The notes beneath the pieces are model-generated. The model searched no databases. It saw only the letters and a program-made list of their open reading frames with translations, and had not been told where the DNA came from. The position numbers and the translations under genes are program-made. DNA of 62,939 nt, counting the filler, from Basidiobolus ranarum (Eukaryota): the NCBI GenBank assembly GCA_040143965.1. It is 20 parts of 20 records of this genome, joined end to end, with 100 filler letters (N's around TTAATTAATTAA, not from the genome) between each part and the next. Parts side by side here need not be neighbours in the genome. Positions count along the whole stretch, not along the records: positions 50,477 to 53,519 come from JASJQH010002770.1; 19 more parts are not named here. The stretch is one strand, 5' to 3'. Shown here piece by piece: positions 10,187 to 56,660 of the stretch. Position 1 is the first letter of the stretch, and every line of letters begins with the position of its first letter.

Positions 10187-10199
10187 ACTACAATAATAA

Positions 10200-12543: not shown

Positions 12544-12659
12544 GTATGTTATCCGGTCANNNNNNNNNNNNNNNNNNNNNNNNNNNNNNNNNNNNNNNNN
12601 NNNTTAATTAATTAANNNNNNNNNNNNNNNNNNNNNNNNNNNNNNNNNNNNNNNNNNNN

Positions 12660-22368: not shown

Positions 22369-22452
22369 ATGATGACCTTCACTCTGATACATTTTGCAGG
22401 TTACTTGTTATTTGATCTTGAAATTTTGTTCCTTCAATTATATTGATCATGG

Positions 22453-23910: not shown

Positions 23911-23912
23911 TT

Positions 23913-28448: not shown

Positions 28449-29583
28449 GAACAGGCTCCGTAGCGCGACGGGGAACAACCTGTGAGGCCGATGGGTTTAG
28501 TCTCATAGACTCTTTCATTACCGCAGTAATGAAGGGAAGAGAGTTTTGTTGTTGTTCAAAAGTGGGATACAGATTCTTGGGTTGATCCCCCAGTAATCTG
28601 TTTGCCTCTTCTCGGGCCTGGTGCTGATATTCCGGGTGAATACTCAAGTAATAAATAGCAGACGATAGAGCATTGGCTGTAGTGTCATGACCAGCAACAA
28701 AAAAAGTGATAACATCGTTGCGAATCTCTTCTGGAGTTAATTTTTCCTTCTCCATCTCACCAGCTTGTATCATGAGCGTCACTAAATCAGCACTTTGAAG
28801 GTCCGTAACCTTTCCTTCCCGTAACTTTTCCACCTTACTTTGTATAACACTCATAATGAACTGATGGAATTTTGCAAGCTCAGTTTGATATCCACGACGA
28901 CCAACTAGAGGGGCATTCTCCAAGAATGGAAACATTGAATAAAATGGGTTGCCTATTTCAGTAAGGATAGTGTTGTAGAGTTCTACAATCTCTCCACCTT
29001 GCGTTTCGATGGAATTGAAATCATAATCAAAGATTACTTTTCCAAGGGCATCCAAGGTCATTCGCTGCATAAGTTCCTTAACAGGAACATGTGTACACTT
29101 CTTGTCGATTTCAGTAATCAACTTGGACACAAGCTCGCCAAAGGTAGTTGTAGTCCAGGAACGATGAAATGCTGGGTTAGCGATGCGGCGGTGTTTCCTC
29201 CACTCATCACCATTGGATGATACAATATTGACAGTAGAGAACTTTGCCCGTAGCGTATTAGGTTGCTCTTGACTTAATATGATTTTTGGGAAGATATCAG
29301 CCTTCATTAAAATGGTTTTTGCATAGTCTGGATTGGAAACCATCACCATCCATCTTCCAAGTACAAATTGTCTAGCCACTCCCTTTTCAGTTATCACTGG
29401 TACGACAAGTTTATCGAAGCGTTCCGCGGCATCCATGGCTTTGCCTGATGACCATAAGCTTTGCCAAAGGGACACGGCAGGGATGTGTTCAAGGTCTTTG
29501 GGACATTTAACTTTTTCATAGAAATACCGCGATATACCCACAATAGATGCGCAAACAAATATCGGAATTGACAATAAATCCAT
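28449..29583 (-). CDS. Cytochrome P450, 3'-truncated, intronless
   Basis: N-terminal anchor, 'WRKHRRIANPAF' (C-helix), 'FFVAGHDTT' (I-helix), 'KESMR' (ExxR). Confidence 0.95.
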
Positions 29584-30506
29584 AATTGTTGGTGGAGGTT
29601 AATACAGATAGAATATGATTTGGACTAGTGGTAAATTGGAGCCTTATATACATGAATTAGGATCCGTCATCTGGCTGTGGGCTAACTCTACATGTGTTCT
29701 CTGCTAATACACGCGGAGTTTCCTGTAGCGTATCAACTGCAGCTTGGGATAAACGGAGACTATCTGCCGAAAATCCGTAATTGTAGTACTTTTTAACTCT
29801 ATTACTATCAGTGCTTTCAGGTGTTCTTCAGGCGAATCATAACCTTTTTCTTGATAATTTCACTGATGTTAAAGGTTAGTAAATTGTATTCGACTTCCAT
29901 GTTGCTTGCTATTCACTGACGGATAGGGAGGCATTCAGTGTTGACCCAATCACACAGAGACACACTATTTTTAGTAACTTTGGTTTCTAATCCATCACAC
30001 GTCTTTCTACCAGGACCTGCGCGATGACAGTATAATGGCCACTGCTAGGTCTTAAATCTGCATCGCCTGGTTGAATATAAAATCGAAATCCCGAGACTGA
30101 AGAGAGAGATATGGATATAAAAGTAAACAGTGTCGCATGTTCCATGAAAGTTAAAGCATGGTACTTTGGACCTCTATATGGGCAAATTTATTCAGGGGTT
30201 CCCTTACATCCTTGAAGGGCTATGCCAAAGTTTCATTGTGGCCTGTGATGCATTGTTGGCATTTCTCACTACGCTCATTTGGATTTAGACCAGGCGGACA
30301 CTGGCAACTTTATGTAGTACATATGTAAAATGAGAAACCCCCTCACAACTGATCATAATGTATTTGCATTTTCAAAGAAGTTCTGTATGCTAAGCCCATC
30401 CTCTCACCACATCGGCAGTCATTATATACTCTGCAGAACCTTCAGAACTCATGGAGAACACCAAGTAATATGGATATAGTGTATATTTTTCTTTTAATGT
30501 CTTTAT

Positions 30507-30834
30507 TGTTGAAATATTTTGGGAGTTGTAGGTAGTGGTTTGGAGAGCTAGAAAAAATTAATGGTTTTCACTTCTTACTTTAATGAGTGGAAAGTTGATA
30601 TTTATAGTTTTGTCAGAATGTAAACAAACAAGCGTGTAGAGTGTTAAGAAAGGTCCCGGGAACATGTGTGCAAAGTTTGGGGCCTCTAGGACACATTTTC
30701 AAAATGTATATATCCTCCAACTTCTAAGTAAATTCCTCTCGAAAATAGTAGGAGATATCTTGGTTCAATAGGGAAAAGCTAAATACTAAGCTATATAAGG
30801 CTATATAGATGTTTAGGCTATGCTAATTTCAACA
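30507..30834 (-). mobile_element. Solo LTR family B
   Basis: TGTTGAA...TTTCAACA full length. No PBS or PPT adjacent and no clear TSD. Confidence 0.85.
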
Positions 30835-30977
30835 GACTTTACCAGCCTTTGAATTATTGGACAGCATAAATATGTTATCAATAACACAAAGTATATCAAT
30901 TAACACATCAACAAATTTTGCAATAAAAGTATTCAAGTCAATCTTTTTATATGCAATAGCAATGGAGAGGTTGTTAA

Positions 30978-31501
30978 TGTTGAAATTAGCTTTGCCTAAA
31001 CACCTATATAGTCATATATAGCTTAGTACTTAGATATTTTATAACTCACTAAGATATTATCCATTATTCTCAATTGTAATTTACTTAGAATATTTTTACC
31101 AACTTAGAAGTTCTCAGATATATAGATTTTTCAAAGAAGCCCCAAGCTTTGCACACATGTTCCTGGGACCTTCCGTAACACACTCTACATGTTAGTTTGT
31201 TTACATCTTGACAAAACTATAAATGTCAACTTTCTACTCAATAAATCAATAAGTGAAAACCACCAATTCCTCTAATTCTTCAAACCACTTCCAGCAGGCT
31301 CCCAAATACTTTAACAGGTTATGAGCCCCAAGCTTGCACTTTCTGTAATGTCTACTTCTCAGATCAATGGAACTTTTCCCTCTTCTGAATAATTGGATGG
31401 AACCAATTATCAAGTTTGGAAAATTAAAATGAAAATGCTGCTGCAAGAAAAAGGACTTTGGGACACTGTTGTAGGAGAAGAAAACAATGCAAAACTATCT
31501 G
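30978..31501 (+). mobile_element. Copia family B 5' LTR (30978-31316), half-tRNA PBS GGTTATGAGCCC (31317-31328) and gag start
   Basis: TG...CA LTR; gag 'MSTSQINGTFPSSE*LDGTNYQVWKIKMKMLLQEKGLWDTV'. Confidence 0.9.
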
Positions 31502-37799: not shown

Positions 37800-38325
37800 N
37801 NNNNNNNNNNNNNNNNNNNNNNNNNNNNNNNNNNNNNNNNNNNTTAATTAATTAANNNNNNNNNNNNNNNNNNNNNNNNNNNNNNNNNNNNNNNNNNNNA
37901 ATATATCAAAGAGACTAGGGATTTCGAAGGTGACAAATTAGCGTTCAAGTGGTAATTGTGTAAAATTTGAGTTACGTTTTTCGCACATGTGTTGATCCAT
38001 AGTTTTCTGAGATTTTAGCCAATCATTCGCAACTATTTTGCGAGATCTTGAAATTTCACTCCTGAAACTGAAAAAATTGATTAAAATCAAATCTAACTTG
38101 ACGATTTTATGACGGTAAGTAAACGGTCAATCCCAAATGGATTAAAATTGTGACGGTTTTCCTACAATAACAATCCTCAAATTTCTGTTAGGGTGTGTAG
38201 GCTTAATGGTTCAGCACATATTCTGCTCTGCTAAATTGTCATGGTGACATTCATATGTATGGTGTGGGATTGACTGAAATCAATGGAGGGAAGTCTACAG
38301 GCAAGTATGGGTAGTCTGATCAAAC

Positions 38326-38700
38326 TTTCACAATAAGGAACTGGACAAGGACTAGGAACAATGACATAAGGCTAGAAGGCAGGAGAGTACTTGGGTGTAG
38401 ACCACAAGACAAGACTGGACAAGGAAGATACTTTGGCAAGGATCTTTATTGATAACTGGCATTGATCAGACTGAGGTCTGATCAAGGAATACATGGGGCT
38501 TATATAGATATTGCAAGGTAAGACATAATATACTGAATAGGGAATATATTGTGGCAAGTTTGAGAGTTGGGGTGTTGGGAACTACAAGGACCAATACAAA
38601 GAGGGATGATGTAAGGATGACATAAGGATGATCAGGTGACCTTCCATGGAAGGTCTTGGTGGAAATATACTATGTGTGGGATGCCATGATTGGTTAGGTT
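38326..38700. repeat. Repeat family D, LTR-like (end approximate)
   Basis: TCACAATAAGGAACTGGACAAGGACT...GGCAGGAGAGTACTTGGGTGTAGACCACAAGACAAGAC shared with 43988-44089. Confidence 0.55.
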
Positions 38701-38874
38701 TCATGGAATATTCCAAAGAACATGATTTCCATATAAGGTAATCTGGATTAGCTGACACCAGATTGCCAAGAAGGGATGAAACAGCAGATATGATGCCATA
38801 ATCTAATAATAGAAGAGTTCTATTTGCAATGGATCAGTATGCCAAGATCAGAATCATGACATTCATTGAGTAAA

Positions 38875-39596
38875 ATGTTAACATGTGGAGATTTGTCAAG
38901 ATGTAAATAAGCCAACTTGAAAAGTGTGTTAAGGAAGGTCCTGGGAACATGTGTGCAAAGTTTGGGGCTTCTTGCACAAGTTTGCAAATCAATATAAATG
39001 ACAACCTATAAGTTGGCAAATTATCACCTGACTTACCAAAATTGAATTTTAGCCCTTCTGAGATGGCCTTGCATAGAGATACTATTTTCTTAGCCATATC
39101 TAGAACATGTATTACATCCTTAAAAGTATATGCTTTTCCTTCAGCAACACCAGTTAAATTGACTTCAATTGTTCCCATTCCAATAGCATCCAATGAGCAG
39201 TCAGCTCCCATGAAAACCTTTCTAATTCAAATTTTTTCATAATTTACAAACCAATGTTTTACACTTGTAAAATGTTGGAATGCTGCAGAATAAATACATC
39301 ACATCTGAGAATTGTTGTTGGTAGTCATAGTGCGGCAGATATGAACAAGTGATCATCAGTTATAACCACATTTCCCAATTCAGTATGTTTTTCTTCTTTT
39401 GCAATTCTTTTAAAGCAATCTTTGCTTAAAGGACCAGTTCTTTTACAGTCATCACAGAATATGTTACTCTTCTTCTTAAAGTGCTTTTGACCTTCATAGG
39501 AAAGTTGGCCATAGCCTATTAAAACATTTCCTTCATTCATTTGGTAGGACCCTAATTTGCATAAATCTCTATCCAGAAGTCTGCAAAATATATAAT
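38875..39596 (-). mobile_element. Copia family B gag zinc-knuckle/protease remnant plus LTR B fragment
   Basis: 'CDDCKRTGPLSKDC', 'DDHLFIS', 'DAIGMGTI..FKDVIHV'; homologous to 48004-48420. LTR B piece at about 38875-38990. Confidence 0.8.
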
Positions 39597-40944
39597 AGAC
39601 TTGTTCCATTGGCCCAGGTTAGATTGTGCTGCTCAATCCAGCCTGCTAGTACAGGGTATAGGCAATCTGCCAAGCACCATGGCTGGGTCCCATAACACTT
39701 AATTGGATACTACAAGGAACAATATGGCACTATATCAACAAAATCAGACATTAACTTGTTGGAGATATTGAGCCTACACATACCAAGGTACCTGATTTAG
39801 CTTTGCAGAATTAAGATTTTGGGCAAATAACAAAGTTTATTCATCTCCTAGTTTGTAACTTATCACTTACCAAATGTGTAACAATAAACAATGTATACTC
39901 TGACTTATCCAGAAAAATGTTTAACCAAGCCATTCACATGTTTTTAGGCCATTCATTTGTCCCTTACTAACATAATATCCCAATTTTCAATTGGGCACAA
40001 CAGCTCTGGCATTACAAAACAGCAGTAATCTTACCACACTGGTGACAAATCACAGCACTCAATGATGAACTTATCTGCAGAATGATAGTAATGATCTGGA
40101 TTGCTTGATTCATCATTTTTACATCAACAAATTTTCCATTCAATAAAGTAAATTTCTAATTGGGTGAGAGTGTTGATGAATTGAGCCATATTAAGCCTTA
40201 AAGGCTGAACAAGGTTTTTATTGACATATATTTTTCATTATATTGTAGTGAAATCACTGGTATTACCCTAACAAAAGTAAAATTGACTTGATCCAGATCA
40301 GATCCACCCTTCAAAATCACAAAACCATCACAGAACCGTCACAATATTGGTGGCTTGCATTCTGCCAGGTATTCTGCTGGTATGACAATGGTTTCTTGAT
40401 GGTATTATAACAGTATTCATACATGTTAAAATGTTGATCCAAATATTCAGCATGTGTTATTAATTTCTGGCAATTTTTGCAAAAAAATACAGGTCAGATC
40501 CACCCTCCAAAATAGCAAAACCATCAGAGACCATCTCAATATTGTTGCCTTGCATTCTGCCAGGGATTTTGATTGTGTGATGGTGGGTTCTTGATGGTAT
40601 CTTAATGGTATTCATACATGTTAAAATATTGATCCTCCAATTTGGCATGCATTATTCAATATCCAGCAATTTTTGCAAAAATATAATTTTTGAATGGCAA
40701 ATTACTGGGTTTACTGCCATAGGAATTTGAATAAATATGAACACCTTTATTTAGATATTTTAGGCTTTGTATTCCAGCCATAATGGGAATCAAGAAGTAC
40801 AAGAATCTTGTTGTGTTTAGTCTTTACATATGGACATATTTGACTGATTAGACATAACTCTACAACATCAATATGCTTTACCAGCAAACTAACGGTGGAA
40901 AAATTGCTAAACATCTGAAATTTTGAATAGCACTGACACTTGGC
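39597..40944 (+). mobile_element. Terminus and interior of a TIR DNA transposon, with a ~195-bp tandem duplication (about 40300-40680)
   Basis: Starts AGACTTGTTCCATT after AAT and interrupts copia gag. 40266-40944 is shared with 43585-43987 and, reversed, with 47520-48003. That the interior belongs to the same element is inferred. Confidence 0.6.
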
Positions 40945-41619
40945 NNNNNNNNNNNNNNNNNNNNNNNNNNNNNNNNNNNNNNNNNNNNTTAATTAATTAA
41001 NNNNNNNNNNNNNNNNNNNNNNNNNNNNNNNNNNNNNNNNNNNNTCTGATAGAAAGTAAACCTTATATCCACTTTGGGTTCATGCCAATCTCTGGTTTTG
41101 TCTCTACAAACCCACAAGAAAGCCGCAATAGCGAGGACAAAACATGATCACTCTCCTCATCGAATCTCCTGTTGTTTTCTTTCACCATATCCATGGACCA
41201 TAATTGACTAAACTTTAACTCATTTGTACATAGCAATCCATTCATATTCTCATTTCTCTTTCTATCATGTCATCTGCTTTACGTCTGAGATATATCATTT
41301 GCATATACTGAGGCACTGTACTCTTCGACCGTTACAAATAAAGTAGTTTTTGAGATAGTTTACATGTTTTCATAATGATATATGACATTTGATACGATGC
41401 GTTTGACACTAATGATATTTGTGGAAACTTTGAAAGCCATGGGGTATGTCAGAGGTTTCAAGGTTAAGTAAAGTCTAACTGCTTTGCTAATTTCTTTTCA
41501 TATTAGCGAGAGTAATGGCAATTTCTAGGACTAAATATTGGGCATCATAGTTTTGAAACTAATGTGTAGTGGCGCATGTGTTATCTGGGTGTTCAAACAT
41601 TTGATTATTCTTAAACTGT

Positions 41620-42272
41620 CTGAACCTGGAGCGTGCAAATATGACTATGGCTTTACTTCAGCAGCCTCATTTCCAGCATTAAATACCATAATTGAGATAT
41701 CCAGTATGGCATTTCTGACTGGACTCATTCTACAAGCACAAACAAATATTACAAAGGCTGCCCTATTAGCAGTGGAGGAAACTGAATCTCGTCACGAAAT
41801 TTGGGGCCGAATCGACATTTGGAAGGCTGATCCATTTGGTGGACCATCTGATACTATCTATCCCTATGCAAATCAAATCCTCGATGTTACCAATGAATTT
41901 ATTGTCCCTGATTCTTGTCCAAAGGAGAATCCTACATATCTCGAGACATCCCAGCATCTACCCCAGCTCATTCGTCTCCAACTCCACATCATTAACACCA
42001 TGATTGCCAATCACCTCTTCGTATCGTAGTCCATCCTCTGTGCCCAACTTTCAAGAGGAAAAGGATTATTATGCAGTATTCTTCCACGGATTACTAAATA
42101 TCTCTATGCCATTTTATACAAAAACCAATTCTTCGATAATTCTCAAAGACTTTAAGAACAAGGGAGTATGCTAGCGGTCATTTGTGATGTATCAGGAGCT
42201 CCTACAGAGGCATCTGTACTTGCAGGGCCACTGACCATCTTACTACAGCCAGCAGAACTTACAAAATTGATT
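41620..42272 (+). pseudogene. Ferritin-like (Ferritin_2/Rds1-type) protein pseudogene, 5'-truncated and frameshifted
   Basis: 'CKYDYG..IEISSMAFLTGL..ETESRHEIW..DPFGGPSDTIYPYANQILDVTNEFIVPDSCPKENP'; other frames continue 'KDYYAVFFHGLLNIS' and 'SGAPTE..VLAGPLTILLQP'. Confidence 0.7.
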
Positions 42273-43584
42273 TATTTTTTTAGTTTTGAGGCTCTCCATC
42301 ACTACCATGATTGATATATTGACAGTCATTTCAGTTTACTAAGCTACACTGCTAGATCAGGAGTTCATGTAGAATACACTAAAGTTATATACTCACCATA
42401 AAGTTCTCATATCAGAGAATGACAAGGGTTAGGGTTAGTATTAAAGTATGCTGATAACGCACAATGTAGTTCCATTTTAAACGACTTTATTAGAGTAGTA
42501 AAGGGAAGAAGGTGCTAAAAATGCCCATGGTAGTCTTATACAAGTAATTTTGATAGAAAACTGACGCAGTCATTTTAAAATAGCGTTACTGAAGATTAAA
42601 CTTTTGCTCTTGATATATGAATACGAGTCTAAAACATGGGATATAATATTATAAACCAAATAAATTGCTATTAATTCATTGTTACATAGTATTCTCAATT
42701 ATAAGTAAGCAATTATCAGTGTCGTGCACTAACGCAGACAAATTCTTAAAGCAAAGTAAATGTTATTATAGCGTTAATAGCTCTTCCTCAATATGTTATG
42801 TGAGTAGTAGTATTGCTAACATTCTAGTTCCTTTAGCACCTGTCATAGGTTTATAAGTTCCGGTTGCATCCTTTGTACTTCATGTTACATTCAGTAGGTT
42901 CAGAATGCACTATTATTGTTTATTTTTTTGTTTCTGTTTGCGAAACAAAGCAAATAATGATACTAGGATTTCGCAATTGTCTAGTATTACCTCTTATACA
43001 GAATCTTTTTATTGATCAGTCAACAGAAAGAGGGTAATGAGAATGTGTAAGTTGGTATATACAGATTTATGAGAGATATTGTTAACTAGCCCTGTACCTC
43101 TTTTCTAATTGTATCTATATGCTGCTTGAATTGTGACATAACTGAATGGTTACAATGCATTGCCTGAATTGCAATTTCCTAGATTATTTATATGATACAA
43201 TCCAAATCATTTCTGGATTCAGCAATGGAATCCCTCCCCATAACTGTAGTAATGAATTAGCTATGGAGAGAGGATCATTTCTTGAAGAAGAAGGATATTG
43301 AGAGTTGATTGTCCTAAAAATATTACTATAGAACCTGCCTCCTCAACTACTGACCTTCTATTTAATGGGGAGATTACAAACCCTTCACCTGTTTTTTATA
43401 TATAAAAACACATATATTACCTTATGAAAGCAAATTTCAGATGGTCTGGATTGGATCCTGATCAAACTCACTAAACACCATAAGAATTCCTTCACAATCC
43501 TAGCAACTTGGACTCTAGCTACTTTTACATAGATTCCTTAATGATTTTCTGATGTGTCCTAACAAAAATTAAATCAACTTAATC

Positions 43585-43987
43585 CAGATTGGATCCACCC
43601 TTCTGAAGCACAAAACCATCATAGGACCATCACAATATTGGTGACTTGTATTCTGCCAGAGATTTTGATGGTGAGATGGCAGCTTTCTAATGGTATTATG
43701 ATGGTAATTGTACATGGTGAAACATTGATCCTCATATTTAGCATGCATTATTTAATTTCTGACAATTTTTGGAAAAACCAATTTTTAAATGGCAAATTAC
43801 CAGACTTACTGCTATAGGAATTCAAATTAATACATATGCCTTTATTTAGATATTTTAGGCTTTGTATTCCAGCCATAATGAAAATCAAAAAACACAGGAA
43901 TCTTGTTGTATCAAGTCTGTACATATGCATATACTTGACTGATCAGACCTAACTCAGAAACATCAATATACTTCACAGCAAACTGAC
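43585..43987 (+). repeat. Copy of the 40290-40895 repeat (putative DNA transposon interior)
   Basis: GATCCACCCT...AAAACCATCA...AATGGCAAATTAC...TTAGGCTTTGTATTCCAGCCATAATG. Confidence 0.75.
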
Positions 43988-44089
43988 TGTCACAATACGG
44001 AACTGGACAAGGACTGGGAACAACAACAAGAGGCTAGAAGGCAGGAGAGTACTTGGGTGTAGACCACAAGACAAGACAAGACAAGACTG
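43988..44089. mobile_element. Terminus of LTR-like family D, inserted in the preceding repeat
   Basis: Begins TGTCACA, a terminus typical of Ty3/gypsy LTRs; matches 38326 onward. Confidence 0.55.
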
Positions 44090-44189: not shown

Positions 44190-44435
44190 TCAAGGATAAT
44201 CAAAGTTGTATTTCTTTAGCTAAAAATCTCAAATTTCATGCTAGAAGTAAGCACATTGACATTGAACATCACTTTGTTAATGAATCTATTGAGAATAAGC
44301 ACATCCAACTACAGTACTGTGCAACTGAGGACATGATTGCTGACATCCTTACCCAACCATTACCCAAACCAAATTTTGAAGAATTAAGATTTAAGATAGG
44401 TTTAAAATTTATGAATATTTAGTCGAGTGGGAGGG
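44190..44435 (+). mobile_element. Copia RNase H C-terminus and PPT, followed by a probable third LTR type
   Basis: 'KDNQSCISLAKNLKFHARSKHIDIEHHFV..DMIADILTQPLPKP' ends at TAG 44420-44422, then GAGTGGGAGG. Confidence 0.85.
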
Positions 44436-45784
44436 TTGAAGTTTATTATCTTTATCACATTTGTAATCTCTATCTTTATACACCTAACTACTTAATACAT
44501 CTCATATAAGTTAGTAAACATTACTTAGTCAAATATCACTTCACTGGAAATCAGAGCATATATTTTATATATATGTGACTAATGTGAGAATTAGCAATTA
44601 CATACTGGAAATTTCATACTTGTCCAAATTGCCCAATAGATAGCTCAATTTACTCCCACAGATGTTCTGAACACAACTCCAGTGTTAGTTTTCTGTAGTT
44701 ACACCAAAATGTATAAATGCTTTATTTCTGGACAATGAATAATTTTCTCACAAAGCTATTCACAACTCAACTTTTCTAAAGTTCCTCCAGACAGCCCATA
44801 TTTCCCCTATAGGTTCTTCTTTGGAGTGCAGGATGGGTTGTAACTGCTACTATTGTTATAACTCTCAAGTAGCTAAGAATCAGAAAGGATCAAGAAAGAT
44901 AGTATTGTTTCATTAACTGTGTACCAAAGTTTATTAAGAGAGACACTCCCGGACTTATCACAGATAAGGGTTATCATCATAAGATCTTCCTTGGAATATG
45001 AATATTAGACTATCATTTGACCAACTATGACTAACTACTGGAACATTGTATTACTGCTTACTAATACTGATTTGAAACTAGATAACAATTACTAATGGTA
45101 ATTAAAATACTGATCTGGGGACAATACTGATATATAGAAAATGCTAAATGTTGCATACTTAACTGATAATTAGGCTTTTTTGATTTAGCTAATGACAACA
45201 GCTATGATAGTGAAGATGCTATAAAAAATATGGGCTGCATTCTTCAAGATTCAACCCAGATTGAGTTGCAATAGAAATATATATTTTCCTACTATGATAC
45301 TGGATAAAATATCTAGGATAACAAAGAATGGAGGATATGTGTCAGTTTTGGGTGGTGCTACTACTAGAAGCTTTTTCACTTGGGGGAAGTGTAGCTTAAA
45401 TAAAGAAATGAACAAGATTAAATGCTTTGATTTGGTGGCTGATTTTAAAGCTATGAGTTGTGGGCTAAGCATTGAATTGCAATTAAGATTACCATTTTTG
45501 CAGCTGCTAATTTGAACCTTTGAACACATCAGCATCAGAGACTACCACAGCTCTGTGCAAATTTTGAAGTGAATCCATTGTTTTTCTTAACAAGATATTT
45601 CTGTTGGAAGTCTGGTGACTTGTGGTACAAGCAGTAATTCCAAAAGAGGAAAGTATGGAGCATGGTGACTGCATCTGAACACAAAGTCTAAGGCCAATCA
45701 GTTGCTTGTAAAGCTGAAAAGCTAAAGTTCCATACATTGACAGACTAGGTTAAGAATTCCTAGCAATATAGGAATAGCATAAAA

Positions 45785-45857
45785 GGACTGGTAGCTCAGT
45801 GGTTATAGTACCTTGCTAGAGTAAAGGATGTCTTGGGTTCAAATCCTGGCCAGACCA
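45785..45857 (+). pseudogene. Degenerate tRNA-like element (tRNA pseudogene or SINE head)
   Basis: A-box TAGCTCAGTGG, B-box GGTTCAAATCC, acceptor GGACTGG/CCAGACC with one mismatch; D and anticodon stems mispaired. Confidence 0.7.
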
Positions 45858-46099
45858 ATGTTTCTCCCTATATAATTTCAGCAATTTCAAACAATAAAGG
45901 TATTTGTTCTATGTCCAAGGATTGGGTTTTTTTGCAGTTATTACGCTCAAATATTGCAAACAACAAGCACATTGAAAAGAGCCCTGGGCTGGAAGGGTCA
46001 TATAAACTGTTGTTTCTTTAACCTATTGCATTACATCCATTACTGATTTTGCCAATACATTGTTAATCAGATTAGTATGTAGTAATGCTGACAATTTAA

Positions 46100-46600
46100 C
46101 ATGGTGCATCATTTTACAGCAGTTGTGCTTCATTGGGAGCTCCCACAATGTATAGCAAAAACCTATAATCTCTAAGCATTGTGAAAGATGTAGCAGGCAA
46201 TGTATTGAATGCTGGAATAGACTCAGCCTTTCTTTTTAAACTTGTAATAAAATTTTACCTATCCAATTACAAAATCTTTACATAGTTGCTGTATCTGCCT
46301 GAAATCTGCCAATGTGAGTTGATGCCATAAGAATAGATTGACAATATCCACCAATCACTCCCTACCTTGCCAATATTAATCAGGCAGAGATCTTTTCATG
46401 GTTGCACTTGAATATATATAAATCAAATACTTCCAGTTTTTGCATTTGAATAAATGCCCAGATGAGTGGATATTAATGGGAGCTCTGGTAAGGTAAGTTG
46501 GAATCTTGATATTTTCATGCCTTTTCCCAATCAATTCAAACTTTGACCATATCTCAGATGGCTCATTAACATCAAGTTTGCCTCTCTACAGCTAAGTAAG
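46100..46600 (-). mobile_element. CACTA/EnSpm-type transposase remnant
   Basis: 'LIGKRHENIKIPTYLTRAPINIHSSGHLFKCKNWKYLIYIYSS..LPD', then 'LLHLSQCLRDY..WELPM'; homologous to 49780-49965. Confidence 0.6.
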
Positions 46601-47333
46601 TAGTATTGAAATGTTGTTGAGCAATAAGTGCACAGTGCCCAATGTGAGGTGCTGGCTCAGCCTGATCTCCTTTAGTAAAATAATCTTTGGCTTATGGCTA
46701 ATCCCAAGCTTGATGTTAGACTAACTATTTGGTGAACAGATATCAGTGAGTATATTGAAATGCAACAGGTCTCTTGATGCTAAAATTTTGGCATTTAGTG
46801 TTGTATTTGGATAACAGTAATGGATATGCCTGGTAGAGTAAACTCTATTGATTTGACAGCATCTTCAGTAGAATACTGAGTAGTGTGCACAAGAACCTAC
46901 AGGTTTACTGATGGAAGGAATCTCACCATTACATACAATGATATTAGCTTTAAAAAGTATTCACCCATCTGAACTTCATCAGATAACTGTTCAAATTCCC
47001 AACCAAAGGCTCAAAGAAGCTATCTATAAGCTCTGGTCACTTAGGTCCAGATAAGATTGATAGTGTAAAAGTAGTATTACTCTTATAACCTTCAGAAGGG
47101 GGAAGATAGAAGGTAATTAAAATTTTGCCCAGCAAGCCTTTTTTTATTTATCTAATTCAGTAGTTGCTATTTGTGTGCAAACAGTACATGACTCAGGCTT
47201 TCCAGTGCAGTGGTGAAAGCCAAACAACCATTTNNNNNNNNNNNNNNNNNNNNNNNNNNNNNNNNNNNNNNNNNNNNTTAATTAATTAANNNNNNNNNNN
47301 NNNNNNNNNNNNNNNNNNNNNNNNNNNNNNNNN

Positions 47334-48003
47334 CTTCTTGGTGAGATAGATGGAGATATGCAGTATTATTGTTTTAGCCATGGGGTAATCTATTCAAGCC
47401 ATGACACATCTACTTGTGGCAGGACATTTGTTGACTGCAAGTTGGGGATAGATTGGCTGAATTTTTTACAGAAGTTTGCCAAAATCCAAGAGCTTATTCT
47501 CATTGTGAATGGTAACAAGAGTCAGCTATTTGCCAAGTGTCAATGCTATTTGAAATTTCAGATGTTTAGCAATTTTTCCACCATTAGTTTGCTGGTAAAG
47601 CATATTGTTGTTGTTGAGTTAAGTCTGATCAGTCCAGTATGTGCATATGTAGAGACAAAACACAACAAGATTCTTGTATTTTTTGATTCTCATTATGGCT
47701 AGAATACAAAGCCTAAGATATCTAAATTAAGGCATGCACATTAATTCAAATTCCTACAGCAGTAAACCCAGTAATTTGCCATTTAAAAATTTTAGTTTGC
47801 AAAAATTGCGGAAATGAATAACACATGCCAAATATGAGGATCAATATTTCAACATGTATGAATACCATCAAGAAACCACTATCACACCATTAAAATCCCT
47901 TGCAGAATGCAAGCCACCAATATTGTGATGGTTCTCTGATGGTTTTGCAATTTAGAAGGGTGGATCCAATCCAGATCAAATTGATTTCATTTTTGTTAGG
48001 GAT
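47334..48003 (-). repeat. Reverse copy of the 40266-40944 repeat
   Basis: The reverse complement matches contigs 13 and 14; it abuts family B protease sequence. Confidence 0.75.
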
Positions 48004-49334
48004 TCCAAAGCATCCAATGTGTGGTTGTCCCCTATGAAAACCTTTCTAATTAGGATTTCTTCACAATCCACTAACCAATGTTTTTCATTTGTGTAATGTT
48101 GGGAGGCTCCAGAATCAATATGCCATGTCTGAGAATTCTTGTTAGTAGTGATATATAGAGTAGATATGAACAAGTGATCTTCTGCTGTAACCACATCTCC
48201 AGATTCAGTATGTTTTTATTCTTTTTCAATTATTTTAAAGCAATCTTTGCTTAAATGGCCAGTTCTTTTACAATAATCACATAATGTGTTACTTATCTTC
48301 TCAACATGCTTTTGACCTTTATAGGATGATTTCCCATTGCCTATCAAGGCATTTTCTTTATTCTTTTGGTTGGATCCTGATTTGCACAAATCTTCATCCA
48401 GAAGTCGGCTGAATACTTAATTTGAGGTCAAATTTTCAGTTCTTGAATCTAGAGCCATTACTAGGCTCTGAAACCTGTGTGGCAGGCTAGTCAGAACTGC
48501 AACTATTGTATATTGATCAGTGCAAGGTACTCCAATGCACTTCATTTTATCTACTAAAATAGTGACACTACTGATTAGTGACTTGGTGTTTTCTTCTGGC
48601 TTCATCTTTAAGTTAAATAATTATCTTCTTAGAAACATTTTGTTGGCAGCAGAACTTGTTTGGTAGGTGTTTTTCACGCCTTTACATACCTTCTTGGTAG
48701 TTTAAGCTCTTGGACATTGAATTAGAAATTTTTCCTTAATATTAAGAAAAATTGTGTTAAAGGCACTTTGTTCTTTTTTAGCATGGAGTAAAACTTTGGT
48801 TTCAGATAGTTTTGCATTGTCTTCTTCCCCTACAACAGTGTCCCAAGATCCTTTTTCTTGCAGTAGCATTTTCATTTTCATTTTCCAAACTTGGTAATTA
48901 GTTCCATCCAATTTTTCAGAAGAGGGAAAAGTTCCATAAATTTGAGATGTAGACATAACAGATGGTGCATGCTTGGGGCTCGCTACCTGTTAAAGTATAA
49001 GGGAGCCTGTTGGAAGTGGTTTGGATAATTAGAGGAATTGGTGGTTTTCACTTATTAATTTATTGAGTAGAAAGTTGACATATATATTTTTGTCAAGATG
49101 TAAGCAAACTAGTGTGTAGAATGTGTTAAGGAAGGTCTCAGGAACATGTGTGCAAAGTTTGGGGCTTATAGGACTAGTTTGAAAAATCTATATATTGGAG
49201 AACTTCTAAGTTAAAAAAATATTTGAAGTAAATTCCAATTGTGAATAATGGATAATATCTTAGTGAATTTTAAGCTAACTTGGTCCTAAGCTATCTATGA
49301 CTATATTAGTGTTCAGGAAATGCCAACTTTAACA
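48004..49334 (-). mobile_element. Copia family B 5' LTR (48988-49334), variant PBS and degenerate gag-protease
   Basis: 'MSTSQIYGTFPSSEKLDGTNYQVWKMKMKMLLQEKG', 'VLTSLPHRFQSLV', 'WHIDSGASQH'. Confidence 0.9.
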
Positions 49335-49350
49335 GTCTAATGGGGTACAG

Positions 49351-49977
49351 ATGGGTGATTATTTTCTAAAAGCTTATATCATTGTCTGTATTTGTGACAC
49401 TCCTGCCATTAGTAAACATAGAGGGTTTTGTGGGCCCAATGCACTATCTTGCTGTAGATTTTGTTCAATCAATGGAGTTTATGCAACCAGACATATGCAT
49501 TACTACTACCCAAATACAACACTAAGCTCCATGATTTCACCATCAAGAGCCCAGTAAGATTTCAACATGCTTACAGATATCAATTTACCATATAGTCAGT
49601 CTAGCATCAAACTTAGTATTAGCCATAATCCTCAGATTATATTGCCAAAGGGGATCAGCTGGAGTCAGAGCTTCTCATTAGACACTATGCACTTGCTATT
49701 TAACAACATTCCAATATTACTTACTTGGCTATATATTGGAATATTCAGTATGAATGAGCCTTTTGAGATAGGATCAAAGTTTGAATCCATTGGAAAAATG
49801 TTTGAAAGTGTCAAGATACTATCATATTTTACCAGGACTTCCATCAATATCCACTAACCTAGGCATTTATTCAATTGCAAAGACTGGAAATATTGGATTT
49901 GTACATATTCAAGTAGCATCTTGAAAAGATTTCTGCCTGATAAGTATTGGCAACATTTGGAGTTGTGTGTGGATATT
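49351..49977 (+). mobile_element. CACTA/EnSpm-type transposase remnant
   Basis: 'CDTPAISKHRGFCGPNALSCCRFC..G', 'LDTMHLLFNNI', 'CKDWKYWICTYSSSILKRFLPDKYWQH'. Confidence 0.65.
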
Positions 49978-50376
49978 TGTTGTATAATTAATCTTTATTC
50001 AACATCATAGTTAACTTTAGTTTTGATACATATATCAGAAACAGAAAGCAATGTATATATAGCCCCTATATTCTAAATAGGAATATCTCTGTATCTATAA
50101 CAAGTATGTCTTATTACCCCCACTTATCTATTATATCTGATTACACAAACTCCTGAATATCTCAAACAATGGATTTACTTTTCTACTATATAAGCCACCA
50201 TAGACTCTTAAGAATAAAGTAACTAAAGCACACTATCATAAGTTGCTTCTAATACTCAAAGTCTACCCCCATTATGTCAAGATCCTCCAACATGGTAGCA
50301 GCAAGTGAATTAGAGTCTTCTTCCCAACAGGAGATTACTAGTATTCCAACATTCAATGGGGAAGATTTCCATGAAT
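49978..50376 (+). mobile_element. Copia family A 5' LTR (49978-50292), PBS TGGTAGCAGC and gag start
   Basis: TG...CA LTR immediately followed by TGGTAGCAGCAAG; reading frame MVAASELESSSQQEITSIPTFNGEDFHE. Confidence 0.9.
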
Positions 50377-50616
50377 NNNNNNNNNNNNNNNNNNNNNNNN
50401 NNNNNNNNNNNNNNNNNNNNTTAATTAATTAANNNNNNNNNNNNNNNNNNNNNNNNNNNNNNNNNNNNNNNNNNNNAGCATTAGCATCCATAGCTAACCA
50501 ATTCAGGAGAACTGAGTAACATTGGGATATATACATTGAATAAAACTAAATTAGCCTAAGGGGCTTAGAGTTGAAATATAAATAAAACTAATATAAACAT
50601 TCATAAATATATATCA

Positions 50617-50698
50617 GACAACATGGCCGAGTGGTTAAGGCGTATGACTAGAAATCATATGGGCTCTGCCCGCGCAGGTTCAAATCCTGCTGTTGTCG
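50617..50698 (+). tRNA. tRNA-Ser(AGA)
   Basis: GACAACA/TGTTGTC acceptor, TATGA-CTAGAAA-TCATA anticodon arm, long variable arm, TTCAAAT loop, downstream T5. Confidence 0.96.
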
Positions 50699-51394
50699 GA
50701 ACTTTTTAATTTTCACTCCTATTATTTTCAATGGGATGATGCGAGTTATTTTCCCAAATAGGCTGAAGCTACGCTTGTTTCTCATTTCTTGCTACCTACT
50801 ATTCATGAGAGAGTATACTAACTACGAAACAGACATCCGTCACTGGAATTTCTTGCATTCACCTGTTTGCTGGGTCGGATTTTTGTGATAGGTGTTTGTA
50901 AAACGTCATGGAAATATCCGAACTACACGCATGGCGATCTTTTTGGATAGTCCAGTACGCTATCACTCAGCATGTTAGCCTGGTTCAATGACTATCTAGT
51001 TTTAAGTTTCAGTGCACAGGATCAAGGGCAGAGGCACCGCCTACAGTTGTGTTGATGGTATAGCAGTAGAAGAACTGCCTAAAAAGCGATTGGCTCAAGC
51101 TTAACTTTTAATTAAAGTATTTATGTAAACTATAGCTTCTGGTATTTAGAGCTATACATGGTATATGCTAACCCTAGAAACATACTTTGTAGGGATGATA
51201 TACAGAGTTCCGTATCAAACACAGTGATGTACAACGATTATCGAATAGAAATGATTTCTTTAAGATCTTTGGAGGAAGATTGGTTTATTACTAATTCTCA
51301 TGATTCTGGATGTTCCATGCAATGGTATTTGAAATAGTTAGTAGACAAGAAATACAATCCTTATTGTAAGATGGCAATTGGTCAGAATGAAGTC

Positions 51395-51466
51395 GGTTTC
51401 GTGGTGTAACGGTTAGCACCCAGGACTTTGAATCCTGTAATCCGAGTTCGATTCTCGGCGAGACCT
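51395..51466 (+). tRNA. tRNA-Gln(TTG)
   Basis: GGTTTCG/CGAGACC, CAGGA-CTTTGAA-TCCTG, CCGAG-TTCGATT-CTCGG. Confidence 0.96.
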
Positions 51467-51699
51467 TTTCCTGGTAATAATAATTTTACATCAGCCACTG
51501 CCCAGTGTGAGATAATTATTAAGCTATCTTCAACCCTGAGTGTTGAGCCAATGTGCGTAAACTTGTCTTCTTATGTGTGGGGGAGGGAGAAGACACATAT
51601 ACGCTGAAGTGTATTTATAGGTCAAGTCATATTGTGTGTTTGTAAAGTTATCGATCTCTTTATAAATTTAAAAAACACCCACAGAGCAATTAACAGCGT

Positions 51700-51771
51700 G
51701 GCTCTATGGTCTAGTAGTATGATTCTCGCTTTGGGTGCGAGAGGTCGCGGGTTCAATTCCCGCTGGAGCCC
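51700..51771 (+). tRNA. tRNA-Pro(TGG), D-loop GG changed to AG
   Basis: GGCTCTA/TGGAGCC, CTCGC-TTTGGGT-GCGAG, GCGGG-TTCAATT-CCCGC. Confidence 0.92.
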
Positions 51772-51957
51772 TGCCATTTTGATCTTTTTGAGGTGTAAAA
51801 GAGATTAACAAATATTTCTATCATACACAAATCGTAGAATGCTTCTTTGAGTGATTGTCTTATGGCCCATAATCATCGAAGATGTTAATTTAGTTTGAGA
51901 ACATAGAGAAACACAAAATAGACTATATAGCTATCTGGATACCTGTTTTCAATTAAG

Positions 51958-52029
51958 TCCTCATTGGTCCAGTGGTTAGGATTTCTCGCTTTCACCGAGA
52001 CGGCCGGGGTTCGATTCCCCGATGGGGAA
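51958..52029 (+). tRNA. tRNA-Glu(TTC)
   Basis: TCCTCAT/ATGGGGA, TCTCG-CTTTCAC-CGAGA, CGGGG-TTCGATT-CCCCG. Confidence 0.96.
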
Positions 52030-52332
52030 CATTTTGACTAGAGAAAACGTTTTGAGGCTACTAATACGCTTACAATACACTAGACATATTTCTCTTCAAG
52101 CATGTGTTTCGTTTTGAATGGCAAAAAATAACTTTCAAAATCTCCTGGATATAATATTCCTATGAATATAATACACTGTGAGATAGGCTTTCTCATAAGG
52201 TTACTGTAACCATGAATAGCAACAAGATTCTTGGAGACAGCTTACTCACTGCACTTCCCACCGAGTATAAACTCAACTATAGGAGTATTGGTGTAATTAT
52301 ATCTTTAGTTTTCATAACATACACCTATACAG

Positions 52333-52406
52333 GTCTTCGTGGTGTAGTTGGTTATCACGTCTGTCTAACACACAGACGGTCCTCGGTTCGAATCCGAGCG
52401 AAGACA
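52333..52406 (+). tRNA. tRNA-Val(AAC)
   Basis: GTCTTCG/CGAAGAC, TCTGT-CTAACAC-ACAGA, CTCGG-TTCGAAT-CCGAG. Confidence 0.96.
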
Positions 52407-52673
52407 TGTTTCTTTTTGCTACTTAGGGGTTTTGTATGCCGATCTTGATCAAAGTATTTCAGAATGGGGATGAGATATACTTACCCCGGTTGAAAAATCC
52501 TACACCTGAATGTATTGATACTGCTGAATATTGCGTTGATAAAAAAATCAAATGAATAATTATATTGATATGTCTCTATGGTAAATAGTAATATGTATCC
52601 TACAGTTTTAATTACTTATCCTCTTGCAAAAGAGAAAACATAACACTTGATCGTTGCGAGCATTAAAAGGAAT

Positions 52674-52745
52674 GGGCTCAACTGGGAATTGAACCCAGGA
52701 CCTCTCCCACCCTAAGGGAGAATTATACCACTAAACCATTGAGCC
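52674..52745 (-). tRNA. tRNA-Pro(AGG)
   Basis: Reverse complement GGCTCAA/TTGAGCC, CTCCC-TTAGGGT-GGGAG, CTGGG-TTCAATT-CCCAG. Confidence 0.95.
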
Positions 52746-52947
52746 ATACATATACGGTCAATAAGCGGTCCTTTCTCTTCGAAAATTGCCATTATCATCT
52801 GTAGCATACTCAGTTAGCTTGATTCTATTCAGCTTGGTAGATAGTCTATATAATACTAAGGAAATGCAAACCGTCTTAAAGTATAAAAATACTAAATCAT
52901 TCATCGGAAGGGCTGAAGAAATATTTTTTCTCATATTAAACTATCAA

Positions 52948-53018
52948 GCCATTGTAGTATAGTGGCAGTACATCGTGTTGTGGCCGCGTCGACCTCGGTT
53001 CGATTCCGAGCAATGGCA
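52948..53018 (+). tRNA. tRNA-His(GTG)
   Basis: GCCATTG/CAATGGC, anticodon loop TTGTGGC, CTCGG-TTCGATT-CCGAG; no genomic G-1; T5 terminator. Confidence 0.92.
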
Positions 53019-53350
53019 ATTCCTTTTTCTTTAATTCCCAAGATTGACTAATTTCTTCAATCAATGGCTCCTTTTTTTACTTAAACAAGACGTATTTTTG
53101 ATCGATTGATAGATATTAGTTGCCTTACTTTGAGTCTTCCAAAATTGGCATTTCAGCTTTGACCAGCCCCTCATCCAATGAGCCTCTGGATGAAATTCTG
53201 ACCCAAGCACTCTTCACCAAATGCCTATATGAAGTTTTGTCCTTAACGAATGTATTGCACAAAGCTACAGAAAAGTAGTGATGGAATCTCGAATAAAACT
53301 TTGCAGTATACATATTTTATAAATCTGCCCGTCCTTTATATCGGCAACAT

Positions 53351-53433
53351 GGTAACATGGCCGAGTTGGTCTAAGGCGCCGCACTCAAGTTGCGGTCTCG
53401 TAAGAGGCGTGAGTTCGAATCTCACTGTTATCA
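53351..53433 (+). tRNA. tRNA-Leu(CAA), intronless
   Basis: GGTAACA/TGTTATC, CCGCA-CTCAAGT-TGCGG, variable arm CTC-GTAA-GAG, GTGAG-TTCGAAT-CTCAC. Confidence 0.95.
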
Positions 53434-53619
53434 ATTTTATTTCTTCAATTGAGGAATTTCTTTTCGTGCTTGCCCTAATCATTGTGTCGTATTTGACTGT
53501 ATTAACGGTTGTCAAGTCTNNNNNNNNNNNNNNNNNNNNNNNNNNNNNNNNNNNNNNNNNNNNTTAATTAATTAANNNNNNNNNNNNNNNNNNNNNNNNN
53601 NNNNNNNNNNNNNNNNNNN

Positions 53620-55976
53620 GGTGACCTAATTGGAGTAATTTTCCCGGCCTTGATCTTATCATTCTCACGGAGGTGAATATGCATGAATGCCTTTGGTTTG
53701 GTCGAGTATGGTGTGTCAAGATATTATCAGGATTAGTCCCAGGCCACTTATCCTCACGAACCTGAGTCATTTTTCAAAATTACATATGTAGAAATTGGAA
53801 TTGGATGTACCATAAGTGCAAGATTCAGACGTTTGGAATGTGCACAATGCTGATGAAAGCTTCTACTGTATTTGGTTTTTACTCACCAACTACAACATAT
53901 CAACTCTTTTGCCTCTATTTTTATATGATAGTTTCACACTATTATAGCTTAGATGACTCAAGTGCTGATGCCAAGTTATCAAGTTTCCTGAAGTACTTGT
54001 TTCAAAGTTAGAAACAATCTCAGTTGTTGGTGCAATATCCAGGTAATATAAATTCCCAATTCTTGTTCCAGTTGCTACTATCAAGTCCTTTGACTTATAC
54101 ATAGTTGCTTTTCCTTAGCTGAATTTGACATCATAAGGTTTCTTTTCAATTGCTCCAATTGAAAAAAGGTTTGTTGTAAATAATGGAATATACAAGTCAT
54201 CTTCCAAGGTTACTGTTACACTTTTGGTTTTACTTATTTGTAAGTCAAGTGTCACCTTGCCCATTCTATATGCAACCAGTTTGTTTCTTCCAGCTACTGT
54301 AATATCTAGAGGTTCTATTTCCTTATAGTCATGCATTATGATTCTATTATGACACATATGATCACTTGCACCAGAATCCAGAATCCATATATCAGCAGAG
54401 TCATTTCCTGATTTAGAAGTTGGCATATATGTATAGTGTTCATTTCCTCTTTTAGTGGTGCTGAATGCTTCCTTTCTTATTGGAACCCATTTCTTCTTTG
54501 ATCTGCAATAATATGCTGTGTGTGCCAGTTTTCACATTTGCAATATCTCATAATGCCCCTTGGTGGTTGGCTATTTTGAGAATAAGATACTTGTGTAGTT
54601 TTTGTTTCACTTTCAATATGACTTTTGTCTTTCCTTTTAAATTCCTCTTGACATAGACAAGTGTTCAGATAGTGCTGAGTAAGCTTATCCCCAATTGCTT
54701 CCATAGTGAGTATTAGAGCTGAATATGATTGAAGGAGCCATTAATCATGGTAAGAATTATATCCATTTCAGGTACTTCATAACTTACTGATTCCAGTTGT
54801 TGGTCAAGTGTCTTGACATCTTTCATATATATCATAATATCTGAGTTCTCAGACATATGAGAATTGAAGAATTATTTTGTAGCATCAACAAGTGAGCAAG
54901 CCCTTTTTGCTCATGGTGTTCCACTAGGATTTCCCATGCATTCTTGGCAGAGTCAGCATCTCTGACTAGCATAAGTTGTTATGATACCAGTCTTAGACAT
55001 ATTTCCCTAAATGTCAATCTATCTTTTTCTTTGAAGATTGCCCTGGCTTCTATACTGTTAGATAATTAATCTTTATTCAACATCATAGTCAACTTTAGTT
55101 ATGATACATATATCAGAAACAGAAAGCAACATATCTATAGCCCCTATATTCTAAATAGGTATATCTCTACATCTATATAACAAGCATGTCTTATTACCCC
55201 CACTTATCTATTATATCTTATTAAACAGACTCCTGAATTTCTCATTAATTGATTTACTTTTCTACTATATAAGTCACCATATACTCTTAAGAATAAAGTA
55301 ACTGAAGCATACTATCATAAGTTGCTTCTAATACTCAAAGTCTAACCCCATTATGTCAAGATCCTCCAACAGTTACTCAGAAGGTTTGTGCCTTATCCCA
55401 TGTGACTTATCCTGGGTTTTTGCAAGCAAATTGCAAATGGCCTAGTACAGGCCTATTCATGACATATCTCAACAATGTACATAATTATGGACTTGGAAAA
55501 GAAAGAAAAGCAGCTAAAGCAGTACTCAAGGATCAGGAAGTTAGTAAGCTAAAGCAAAAAGTGAGATGTTGGCTTCTTTGTTTTAGTGTCAGAATCTGTA
55601 CCTTGTTTTTGAGAAGTTTCTTCTTCATCTGGTTGAACTACTTCCTAGACATGTTTCCCTTCAAGCACAGGTTTCATCTTGAATTTCCATTCTTGGAAAT
55701 CTTCCCCATTGAATGAGGGAATATTAGTGATAATCTTTTGGGAAGAAGACTCTAATTAACTTGCTGCTACCATGTTGGAGGATCTTGACATAATGGGGGT
55801 AGACTTTGTATATTAGAGGCAGCTTATGAAAGTGTTTTTTAGTTACTTTATTCTTCAGAGAATATGGTGACTTATATGGTAGAGAAGTAAATCAGTTGTT
55901 TGAGATATTCAGGAGTTTGTGTAATAAGATATAATACATAAGTGGGGGTAATAAGACATACTTGTTATATAGATAG
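53620..55976 (-). mobile_element. Copia family A element: partial LTR (55773-55976), PBS, degenerate gag-protease-preintegrase
   Basis: PBS at 55760-55772; 'FNGEDFQEWKFKMK', 'WILDSGASDHMC', 'GNLYYLD..WHQHLSHLS'. Confidence 0.9.
55056..55371 (+). mobile_element. Solo LTR A nested in opposite orientation inside family A gag
   Basis: Full TGTTAG...CCAACA LTR, not followed by a PBS. Confidence 0.88.
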
Positions 55977-56099
55977 TAACTATGGTTCTGTAACTGATAT
56001 AGCAATAAACAAGTTTGGCCAGCAGTGATGGTAATTCATTGCAAATCTTGCACTTTAGCCCTACATATTATTACCTTTGAGTTGGCTTACAGTGTTTAC

Positions 56100-56395
56100 A
56101 ACCCTAAAATCCATCCATCGTCAAGGTTTCTAGATCATTCGCTAAAGCTGCTCGCATGGAGGGAACTGCCCGCTTGAATAAAAGGGAGGTAATCAACCTT
56201 TCATGCAGTTGTGACAATGGATCCAACTGCTTCTTGGATCTTGATGCTAAGAAATATCCTTTCGGCCTAGGCTCAAAAAACAATGCTCTCAAACATTTCG
56301 TCAGTATCTCCGTTGGCGACATTCCATTCGGAAGCACATTTATCGTCAAGCAGCTTCAAGAACTCAAGATGCCTAAAGGTCTAACTGATAAAGTT
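56100..56395 (+). pseudogene. 3D-domain-like (MltA-type double-psi barrel) protein remnant
   Basis: 'FAKAARMEGTARL..CSCDNGSNCFLDLD..YPFGLG..NALKHFVSISVGDIPFGSTFIVKQL..KMPKG'. No clear start, and the catalytic Asp segment is missing. Family from motif recall. Confidence 0.5.
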
Positions 56396-56505
56396 TGCCA
56401 CTTTTCTTTCAAATTAGTCTTTATTAAATACATATATTTACGTCGTTTGATTTTAATGGAATTACACAGGAGTTATCTAGATTATAACTTCGCATAACAA
56501 TAAAT

Positions 56506-56660
56506 CTATTTATCGCAGTCTGCTTCACCACCACCGTTTCCGCCCTTTCCAGAGTCGTAGGCACCAGTTCCGTTACCGCCATTGCCATTATCACCACCAC
56601 CATGGCCAGTGTCGCCGTTACCGCCACCATTTCCACCATTGCCAGAGTCGTAGGCGCCAG
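56506..56660 (-). CDS. C-terminus of a Gly/Asn-rich repeat protein
   Basis: GAYDSGNGGNGGGNGDTGHGGGDNGNGGNGTGAYDSGKGGNGGGEADCDK*. Confidence 0.7.

Follow-up and report, generated by a model that had tools for sequence, protein, structure and literature searches.

A dense cluster of eight nuclear-type tRNA genes with different anticodons on a short contig of a Basidiobolus ranarum genome assembly

A survey of 74 eukaryotic genomes, in which a cluster was defined as neighboring transfer RNA (tRNA) genes no more than 1 kb apart, reported heterogeneous clusters in many lineages, mostly with parallel genes and with more pairs than expected at random (Bermudez-Santana et al. 2010, PMC2888827). In the same survey, which mentions Cryptococcus, most clusters were small and their frequency fell rapidly with size, and large clusters were concluded to have arisen independently many times. 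Most of the tRNA genes of the trypanosomatids T. cruzi, T. brucei, and L. major are in clusters of 2 to 10 different genes (PMC12204681). One-third of the tRNA genes of fission yeasts are centromeric, in mixed clusters that are syntenic, contain as many as 12 genes, and have spacers that are not conserved (10.1101/2022.12.06.519325). We describe a cluster of eight tRNA genes at positions 50617 to 53433 of a 62,939-base stretch of assembly GCA_040143965.1 of Basidiobolus ranarum (the window). It is likely that this locus is a heterogeneous nuclear tRNA gene (tDNA) cluster of B. ranarum, comprised of eight independent RNA polymerase III (Pol III) units with the appearance of functional cytosolic tRNA genes.

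The window is not one locus. It consists of 20 separate assembly contigs of 3,039 to 3,068 bp, sorted by descending size and joined by artificial N44-TTAATTAATTAA-N44 spacers, and features on different contigs are not neighbors in the genome. The contig that carries the tRNA genes (50477..53519, no strand assigned) is 3,043 bp long, has a joiner on both sides, and has an overall GC content of 0.381, or 0.343 with the tRNA genes masked. The first gene lies 140 bp from one contig end, and the last gene lies 86 bp from the other.

ARAGORN found eight tRNA genes at the coordinates, on the strands, and with the anticodons and spacers given in an earlier reading of the sequence (the original prediction), and Rfam RF00005 found the same eight with scores of 56.8 to 64.7 bits (gathering score, 29). 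The ends called by the two methods differ by 1 nucleotide (nt) for tRNA-Glu and tRNA-Leu. The first gene on the plus strand is tRNA-Ser(AGA) (50617..50698; 82 nt; 64.5 bits), which has a long variable arm and discriminator G. It is followed, also on the plus strand, by tRNA-Gln(TTG) (51395..51466; 72 nt; discriminator T; 63.5 bits), tRNA-Pro(TGG) (51700..51771; 72 nt; discriminator C; 58.4 bits), tRNA-Glu(TTC) (51958..52029 according to Rfam, with the ARAGORN end at 52030; 72 nt; 61.1 bits), and tRNA-Val(AAC) (52333..52406; 74 nt; 64.7 bits). The sole minus-strand gene is tRNA-Pro(AGG) (52674..52745; 72 nt; 57.4 bits). The last two, again on the plus strand, are tRNA-His(GTG) (52948..53018; 71 nt; discriminator A; 58.2 bits) and tRNA-Leu(CAA) (53351..53433 according to Rfam and 53350-53434 according to ARAGORN; 83 nt; 56.8 bits), which has a long variable arm and discriminator A. 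The cluster thus offers eight anticodons for seven amino acids. The spacers are, in order, 696, 233, 186, 303, 267, 202, and 332 bp, with a GC content of 0.31 to 0.37 versus 0.51 to 0.57 for the genes. There are five to six tRNA genes per 2 kb and eight within 2.8 kb.

Each gene has internal promoter elements, an AT-rich 5' flank, and an oligo-T terminator of its own, and, judged from these signals, none would depend on a neighbor for expression. Runs of four or five T residues follow all eight genes, as had been predicted, and in seven of them the run starts 2 to 7 nt past the 3' end. Runs of five are located at 50703-50707 (tRNA-Ser), 52413-52417 (tRNA-Val), and 53024-53028 (tRNA-His). Runs of four are located at 51777-51780 (tRNA-Pro(TGG), with a run of five further on), 52032-52035 (tRNA-Glu), 53435-53438 (tRNA-Leu), and, on the minus strand, 52668-52665 (tRNA-Pro(AGG)). 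The run of tRNA-Gln (51466-51469) consists of the discriminator T plus TTT and reaches a length of four only if the discriminator is counted. The background frequency of TTTT is 0.068 per random 12-nt stretch of the whole sequence, which makes seven or more of eight improbable by chance (P = 5e-8).

A boxes (position 8) were found in all eight genes with 0 to 3 mismatches, and B boxes were found in all eight with 0 to 2 mismatches, counted against the consensus motifs as generally known. tRNA-Ser has no mismatch in its A box and one in its B box, the B boxes of tRNA-Glu and tRNA-Val match perfectly, and tRNA-Gln departs furthest, with three mismatches in the A box and two in the B box. Internal A and B boxes, an oligo-T terminator, and no encoded CCA are the features of nuclear Pol III type 2 units, and the reading of each gene as a separate unit is supported. 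In such units, TFIIIC would bind the A and B boxes, TFIIIB would be placed upstream, and Pol III would terminate at the T run.

The 60 nt upstream of the genes are 62 to 80% A+T. Five of the eight genes (those for Ser, Pro(TGG), Glu, Val, and Leu) have a TATA tetramer with its first base between -45 and -25, against a background of 0.14 to 0.20 (P = 0.002 to 0.01, values that are post hoc because the interval was picked after looking). In S. pombe and plants, Pol III makes use of TATA elements upstream of tRNA genes. The enrichment upstream of the genes described here is only suggestive. Visual inspection of the 70-nt flanks revealed no upstream motif apart from TATA, with no motif finder run.

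The identity features of the genes are those of eukaryotic nuclear tRNAs. CCA is not encoded after any of the eight genes, and none has an intron, tRNA-Leu included. The base that precedes tRNA-His is A (upstream sequence, ...atcaa), and there is no encoded G-1. A34 is present in tRNA-Ser, tRNA-Val, and tRNA-Pro(AGG), the discriminators include G73 in tRNA-Ser, U73 in tRNA-Gln, C73 in tRNA-Pro, and A73 in tRNA-His, with A also in tRNA-Leu, and tRNA-Glu begins with U1. A34 in these three tRNAs, no CCA, tRNA-His without G-1, these discriminator bases, and U1 of tRNA-Glu are traits of eukaryotic cytosolic tRNAs. The CCA, the G-1 of tRNA-His, and inosine-34 would be added posttranscriptionally. 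The nuclear-type identity assigned in the original prediction, along with its statements that introns, CCA, and G-1 are lacking, therefore holds.

The clustering of the genes is not a matter of chance placement. Eight of the nine tRNA-like calls of the window are on one of 20 equal-sized contigs (P = 6.7e-9), and under random placement a genome of 90 to 350 Mb with 300 to 5,000 tRNA genes would be expected to contain fewer than 2e-6 clusters with eight genes in 2.8 kb, both ranges being assumptions rather than measurements. For comparison, the haploid genome of B. ranarum has been estimated at about 350 Mb (PMC3281927), and the 1.03-Gb genome of Entomophthora muscae, an allied fungus, has 793 predicted tRNAs (PMC11105155). 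Clustering no greater than chance had been named as a result that would count against the original prediction; the clustering is far beyond chance, both within the window and under the assumed genome sizes.

The ninth tRNA-like sequence (45785-45857, plus strand) is on another contig. It is 73 nt long, scores 39.6 bits with Rfam, and is called 'Ser(aga)' by ARAGORN but is without a long variable arm. By eye, its acceptor, D, and anticodon stems contain mismatches, and downstream there is no more than TTT. A tRNA pseudogene or a tRNA-derived relic is the probable explanation.

Simple tandem duplication was not the origin of the cluster, as previously argued. The only paralogous pair is tRNA-Pro(TGG) and tRNA-Pro(AGG), which are inverted with respect to each other and match over 85 nt at 80%. 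In an alignment that included 40 nt of flanking sequence at either end, the similarity did not extend past the gene borders, and the flanks were unrelated. Where the two genes differ in the acceptor, anticodon, and T stems, the changes affect both members of a pair and are compensatory. A recent local (inverted) duplication of the Pro genes is ruled out because the similarity ends at the gene borders, and the two are old isoacceptors.

The absence of repeated anticodons is less telling than it may appear. Eight draws from 41 to 49 equally likely anticodon families would all be distinct with a probability of 0.48 to 0.55. The original prediction was right that a nonredundant set excludes recent tandem duplication, but it placed too great a weight on nonredundancy, given that an all-distinct set is expected about half of the time. 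Because eight distinct anticodons are close to what random sampling yields, the nonredundancy is no sign of a selected set. Seven of the eight genes are on one strand (P = 0.07 under random orientation), and five of the seven adjacent pairs are parallel. A nonredundant, mostly co-oriented set of this kind needs no special selective explanation. The cluster probably came about as unrelated tRNA genes accumulated and were rearranged in a slow and largely neutral process, rather than by recent duplication.

Comparison with described clusters places the locus closest to those of the broad eukaryotic survey. Its spacers of 186 to 696 bp are within the 1,000-nt limit, it contains more than one isoacceptor family, its genes are clustered beyond random expectation, and its pairs are mostly parallel, all of which it shares with the surveyed clusters (PMC2888827). 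Most of those are small (PMC2888827), whereas eight genes in 2.8 kb make this cluster comparatively large and dense for a fungus. The trypanosomatid clusters are likewise made up of different genes without repeated identical genes, and there each gene is transcribed by Pol III (PMC12204681), as is predicted here. However, half of the trypanosomatid pairs are antiparallel, isoacceptors are not found together, genes for 7SL RNA and small nuclear RNAs (snRNAs) are included, and the clusters are associated with strand-switch regions (PMC12204681). In the cluster on the B. ranarum contig, the pairs are mostly parallel, there are two Pro isoacceptors, and there are no other Pol III genes, and thus it is not of the trypanosomatid type. 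The centromeric clusters of Schizosaccharomyces resemble it in being fungal, mixed, and in low-GC regions, but they lie amid centromeric repeats and 5S ribosomal RNA (rRNA) genes at transitions between CENP-A chromatin and heterochromatin (10.1101/2022.12.06.519325), whereas this contig has neither repeats nor 5S rRNA genes. The arrays of Entamoeba also place several different tRNA genes in a unit of a few kb, but these units are tandemly repeated many times (cited in PMC2888827), whereas no repetition is visible here in the contig or in the other 19.

Mixed tRNA clusters are therefore already documented for eukaryotes generally and for one fungal genus, Schizosaccharomyces; earlier documentation in the lineage had been named as counting against the original prediction. 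In the literature searched, tRNA clustering was not described for Basidiobolus or any other zygomycete, although the per-species tables of the survey (PMC2888827) may list fungal clusters. The parts consulted of genome papers on Basidiobolus and other zygomycetes (PMC7466969, PMC10079182, PMC11105155, and PMC10234402) deal with tRNA genes in passing or not at all.

The spacers were described in the original prediction as unique sequence on a contig with no protein gene and no transposable element (TE), which is true as far as it could be tested with Pfam on 10 open reading frames (ORFs) and with repeat comparisons within and between contigs. An Rfam scan of the contig (E<=1) returned only tRNAs and weak matches to families that resemble tRNA, with no 5S rRNA, snRNA, 7SL, or small nucleolar RNA. 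When 10 of the 17 ORFs of at least 50 amino acids (aa), those in the spacers, were compared with Pfam, there was no match at E<=0.1, and the single match obtained (E = 0.21) was noise; the seven ORFs left out mostly overlie tRNA genes or enter the N joiner. The longest open frame on the contig, 106 aa, runs across the tRNA-Leu gene into the joiner. The contig has no direct repeats and no internal repeats other than the similarity between tRNA bodies, and no repeat is common to it and the other 19 contigs at E<=1e-5. Because the cluster so nearly fills the contig, the absence of a protein gene or TE says little, and because 5 of the other 19 contigs also lack shared repeats, the absence of repeats is unremarkable.

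The best match of the tRNA contig outside itself is a 40-nt segment of the Glu-Val spacer (52080-52119), which is 82.5% identical to positions 2026-2065 of the contig at 53620-56660 (E = 8e-5), where the match adjoins a repeat copy. From its sequence, the segment may be a tiny repeat relic or a chance match; it is too short to be labeled a TE relic.

The cluster fills one 3,043-bp contig and ends 140 and 86 bp from its borders, and thus its full extent cannot be seen and further tRNA genes may lie beyond the contig ends. It is conceivable, though unlikely, that the contig is a slice of a larger organized tRNA domain, either a tandem unit like those of Entamoeba, a tract at a centromere or heterochromatin boundary, or a chromatin domain border. 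Such a domain has precedents in Schizosaccharomyces (10.1101/2022.12.06.519325) and in trypanosomatids (PMC12204681), and the assembly is fragmented and repeat rich (14 of the 20 contigs share repeats, which make up 24% of the bases of the other 19), the condition under which assemblies typically break. However, the search for a tandem unit revealed no direct repeat in the 3,043 bp and no counterpart among the remaining 19 contigs at the threshold given above, and an array of short units would normally collapse or show overlap, although a longer unit or a collapsed repeat would be compatible with this outcome. Neither 5S rRNA nor any other additional Pol III gene accompanies the tRNA genes, and a size of about 3 kb is common to every contig in this part of the assembly and so is not specific to the tRNA locus. 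The original interpretation fares accordingly: nuclear-type genes and separate Pol III units stand, whereas a contig that ends so close to the cluster neither supports nor refutes a dedicated Pol III domain, a larger array that is repeated, or a barrier to heterochromatin.

The broader proposition that a substantial proportion of the tRNA genes of Basidiobolus are kept in long mixed clusters free of TEs, of which this contig would be a fragment, seems rather improbable to us. If it were true, the layout would be like that of trypanosomatids or fission yeast centromeres, could mark centromeres or chromatin boundaries, and would be the first such organization described outside Dikarya, in a deep-branching fungus with a very large genome.

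Whether the contig comes from B. ranarum has to be considered because contamination from another eukaryote had been named as a condition that would overturn the original prediction. The window does contain sequence of this species. A fragment of the midasin (MDN1) AAA-ATPase at 25294-26570 (minus strand), on the contig at 25294-28348, is 100% identical over 96% of its length to the B. ranarum protein 'AAA ATPase midasin, partial', and its next best match is only 51% identical. Pfam domains on other contigs (Aa_trans, EamA, VPS13_M, p450, and Fer2_3 of succinate dehydrogenase) indicate ordinary eukaryotic gene fragments. The tRNA contig has no protein-coding marker and lacks the dispersed repeats by which 14 of the 20 contigs are connected, as might be expected of a coassembled contaminant. 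However, 5 of the other 19 contigs, including the contig with midasin, likewise share no repeat. The masked GC content of the tRNA contig, 0.343, is inside the 0.34 to 0.42 range of the window, and with the tRNAs masked its 3-mer and 4-mer distances to the rest rank 13th and 15th of 20, which is not the position of an outlier; the contig that deviates most in k-mer composition is the one with B. ranarum midasin. Exact-match scans gave zero matches for pieces of tRNA-Leu and tRNA-His in Joint Genome Institute (JGI) metagenome contigs, for pieces of tRNA-Leu, tRNA-His, and tRNA-Val in IMG/VR viral contigs, and for pieces of tRNA-Val and tRNA-Ser in GTDB prokaryote genome contigs, a comparison that took pieces of four of the eight genes and would miss diverged relatives. 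With composition in the middle of the range and no other source identified, contamination is very unlikely, and we infer that the contig belongs to B. ranarum.

The notion that the contig carries a cotranscribed tRNA operon derived from an organelle, virus, or bacterium and inserted in the nuclear genome is close to refuted, for although organelles, bacteria, and some giant viruses typically have dense tRNA clusters of mixed content, such operons have short spacers, cotranscription, an encoded G-1 in tRNA-His, often CCA, and no A34 except in tRNA-Arg, whereas here the spacers are 186 to 696 bp, a T run stands behind every gene, A34 is found in the Ser, Val, and Pro genes, CCA is lacking, tRNA-His has A73 without G-1, tRNA-Pro has C73 (the significance of these identity features being general knowledge), and the exact-match scans of the viral collection with pieces of tRNA-Leu, tRNA-His, and tRNA-Val were empty.

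Several observations weigh against the conclusion that the locus is a nuclear cluster of B. ranarum made up of eight functional-looking Pol III units. The cluster nearly touches both ends of its contig, as would also be seen with a piece of some far larger or repeated structure. The host assignment rests on the place of the contig in the same size-sorted assembly and on its composition, and the contig carries no marker of its own. The test of the TATA enrichment came after the enrichment had been noticed, in a genome that is AT rich. The orientation bias is uninformative either way. Furthermore, function and the existence of several such clusters are both inferences: as judged from promoter, terminator, and tRNA structure, the eight genes would be transcribed and functional, and the cluster is probably one of several of its kind in this genome.

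The cluster is real and is an ordinary kind of eukaryotic tRNA gene cluster, of modest interest unless it is part of a larger organized domain. If it is one of many local clusters, it provides eight well-formed tRNA genes for the annotation of a poorly assembled, medically relevant, early-diverging fungus, and it could also serve scaffolding and synteny studies as a compact marker free of repeats. The cluster would be more important if Basidiobolus gathers its tRNA genes into blocks of this kind or links them to centromeres. To our knowledge, centromere structure and the genomic organization of Pol III genes are essentially uncharted in Zoopagomycota. Elsewhere, tRNA clusters act as replication fork barriers and chromatin insulators (PMC2888827; PMC12204681), and in T. 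cruzi they have been proposed as borders of chromatin domains (PMC12204681).

Other contigs of the window carry retrotransposon and repeat sequences. Fragments of a Copia-type retrotransposon, one with an RVT_2 domain (13502-14062, minus strand; E = 7e-52) and one with a retroviral polymerase SH3-like domain (14404-14862, minus strand; E = 5e-28), occupy separate frames on one contig, and the element is therefore probably degenerate. The dispersed repeat families that link the 14 contigs at E<=1e-5 are 70 to 96% identical and 50 to 650 bp long. The contigs that contain them include those at 3169-6234, 6335-9398, 9499-12559, 18980-22037, 22138-25193, 28449-31501, 37900-40944, 41045-44089, 44190-47233, 47334-50376, and 53620-56660, along with others, and the contig at 47334-50376 is 81% repeat.

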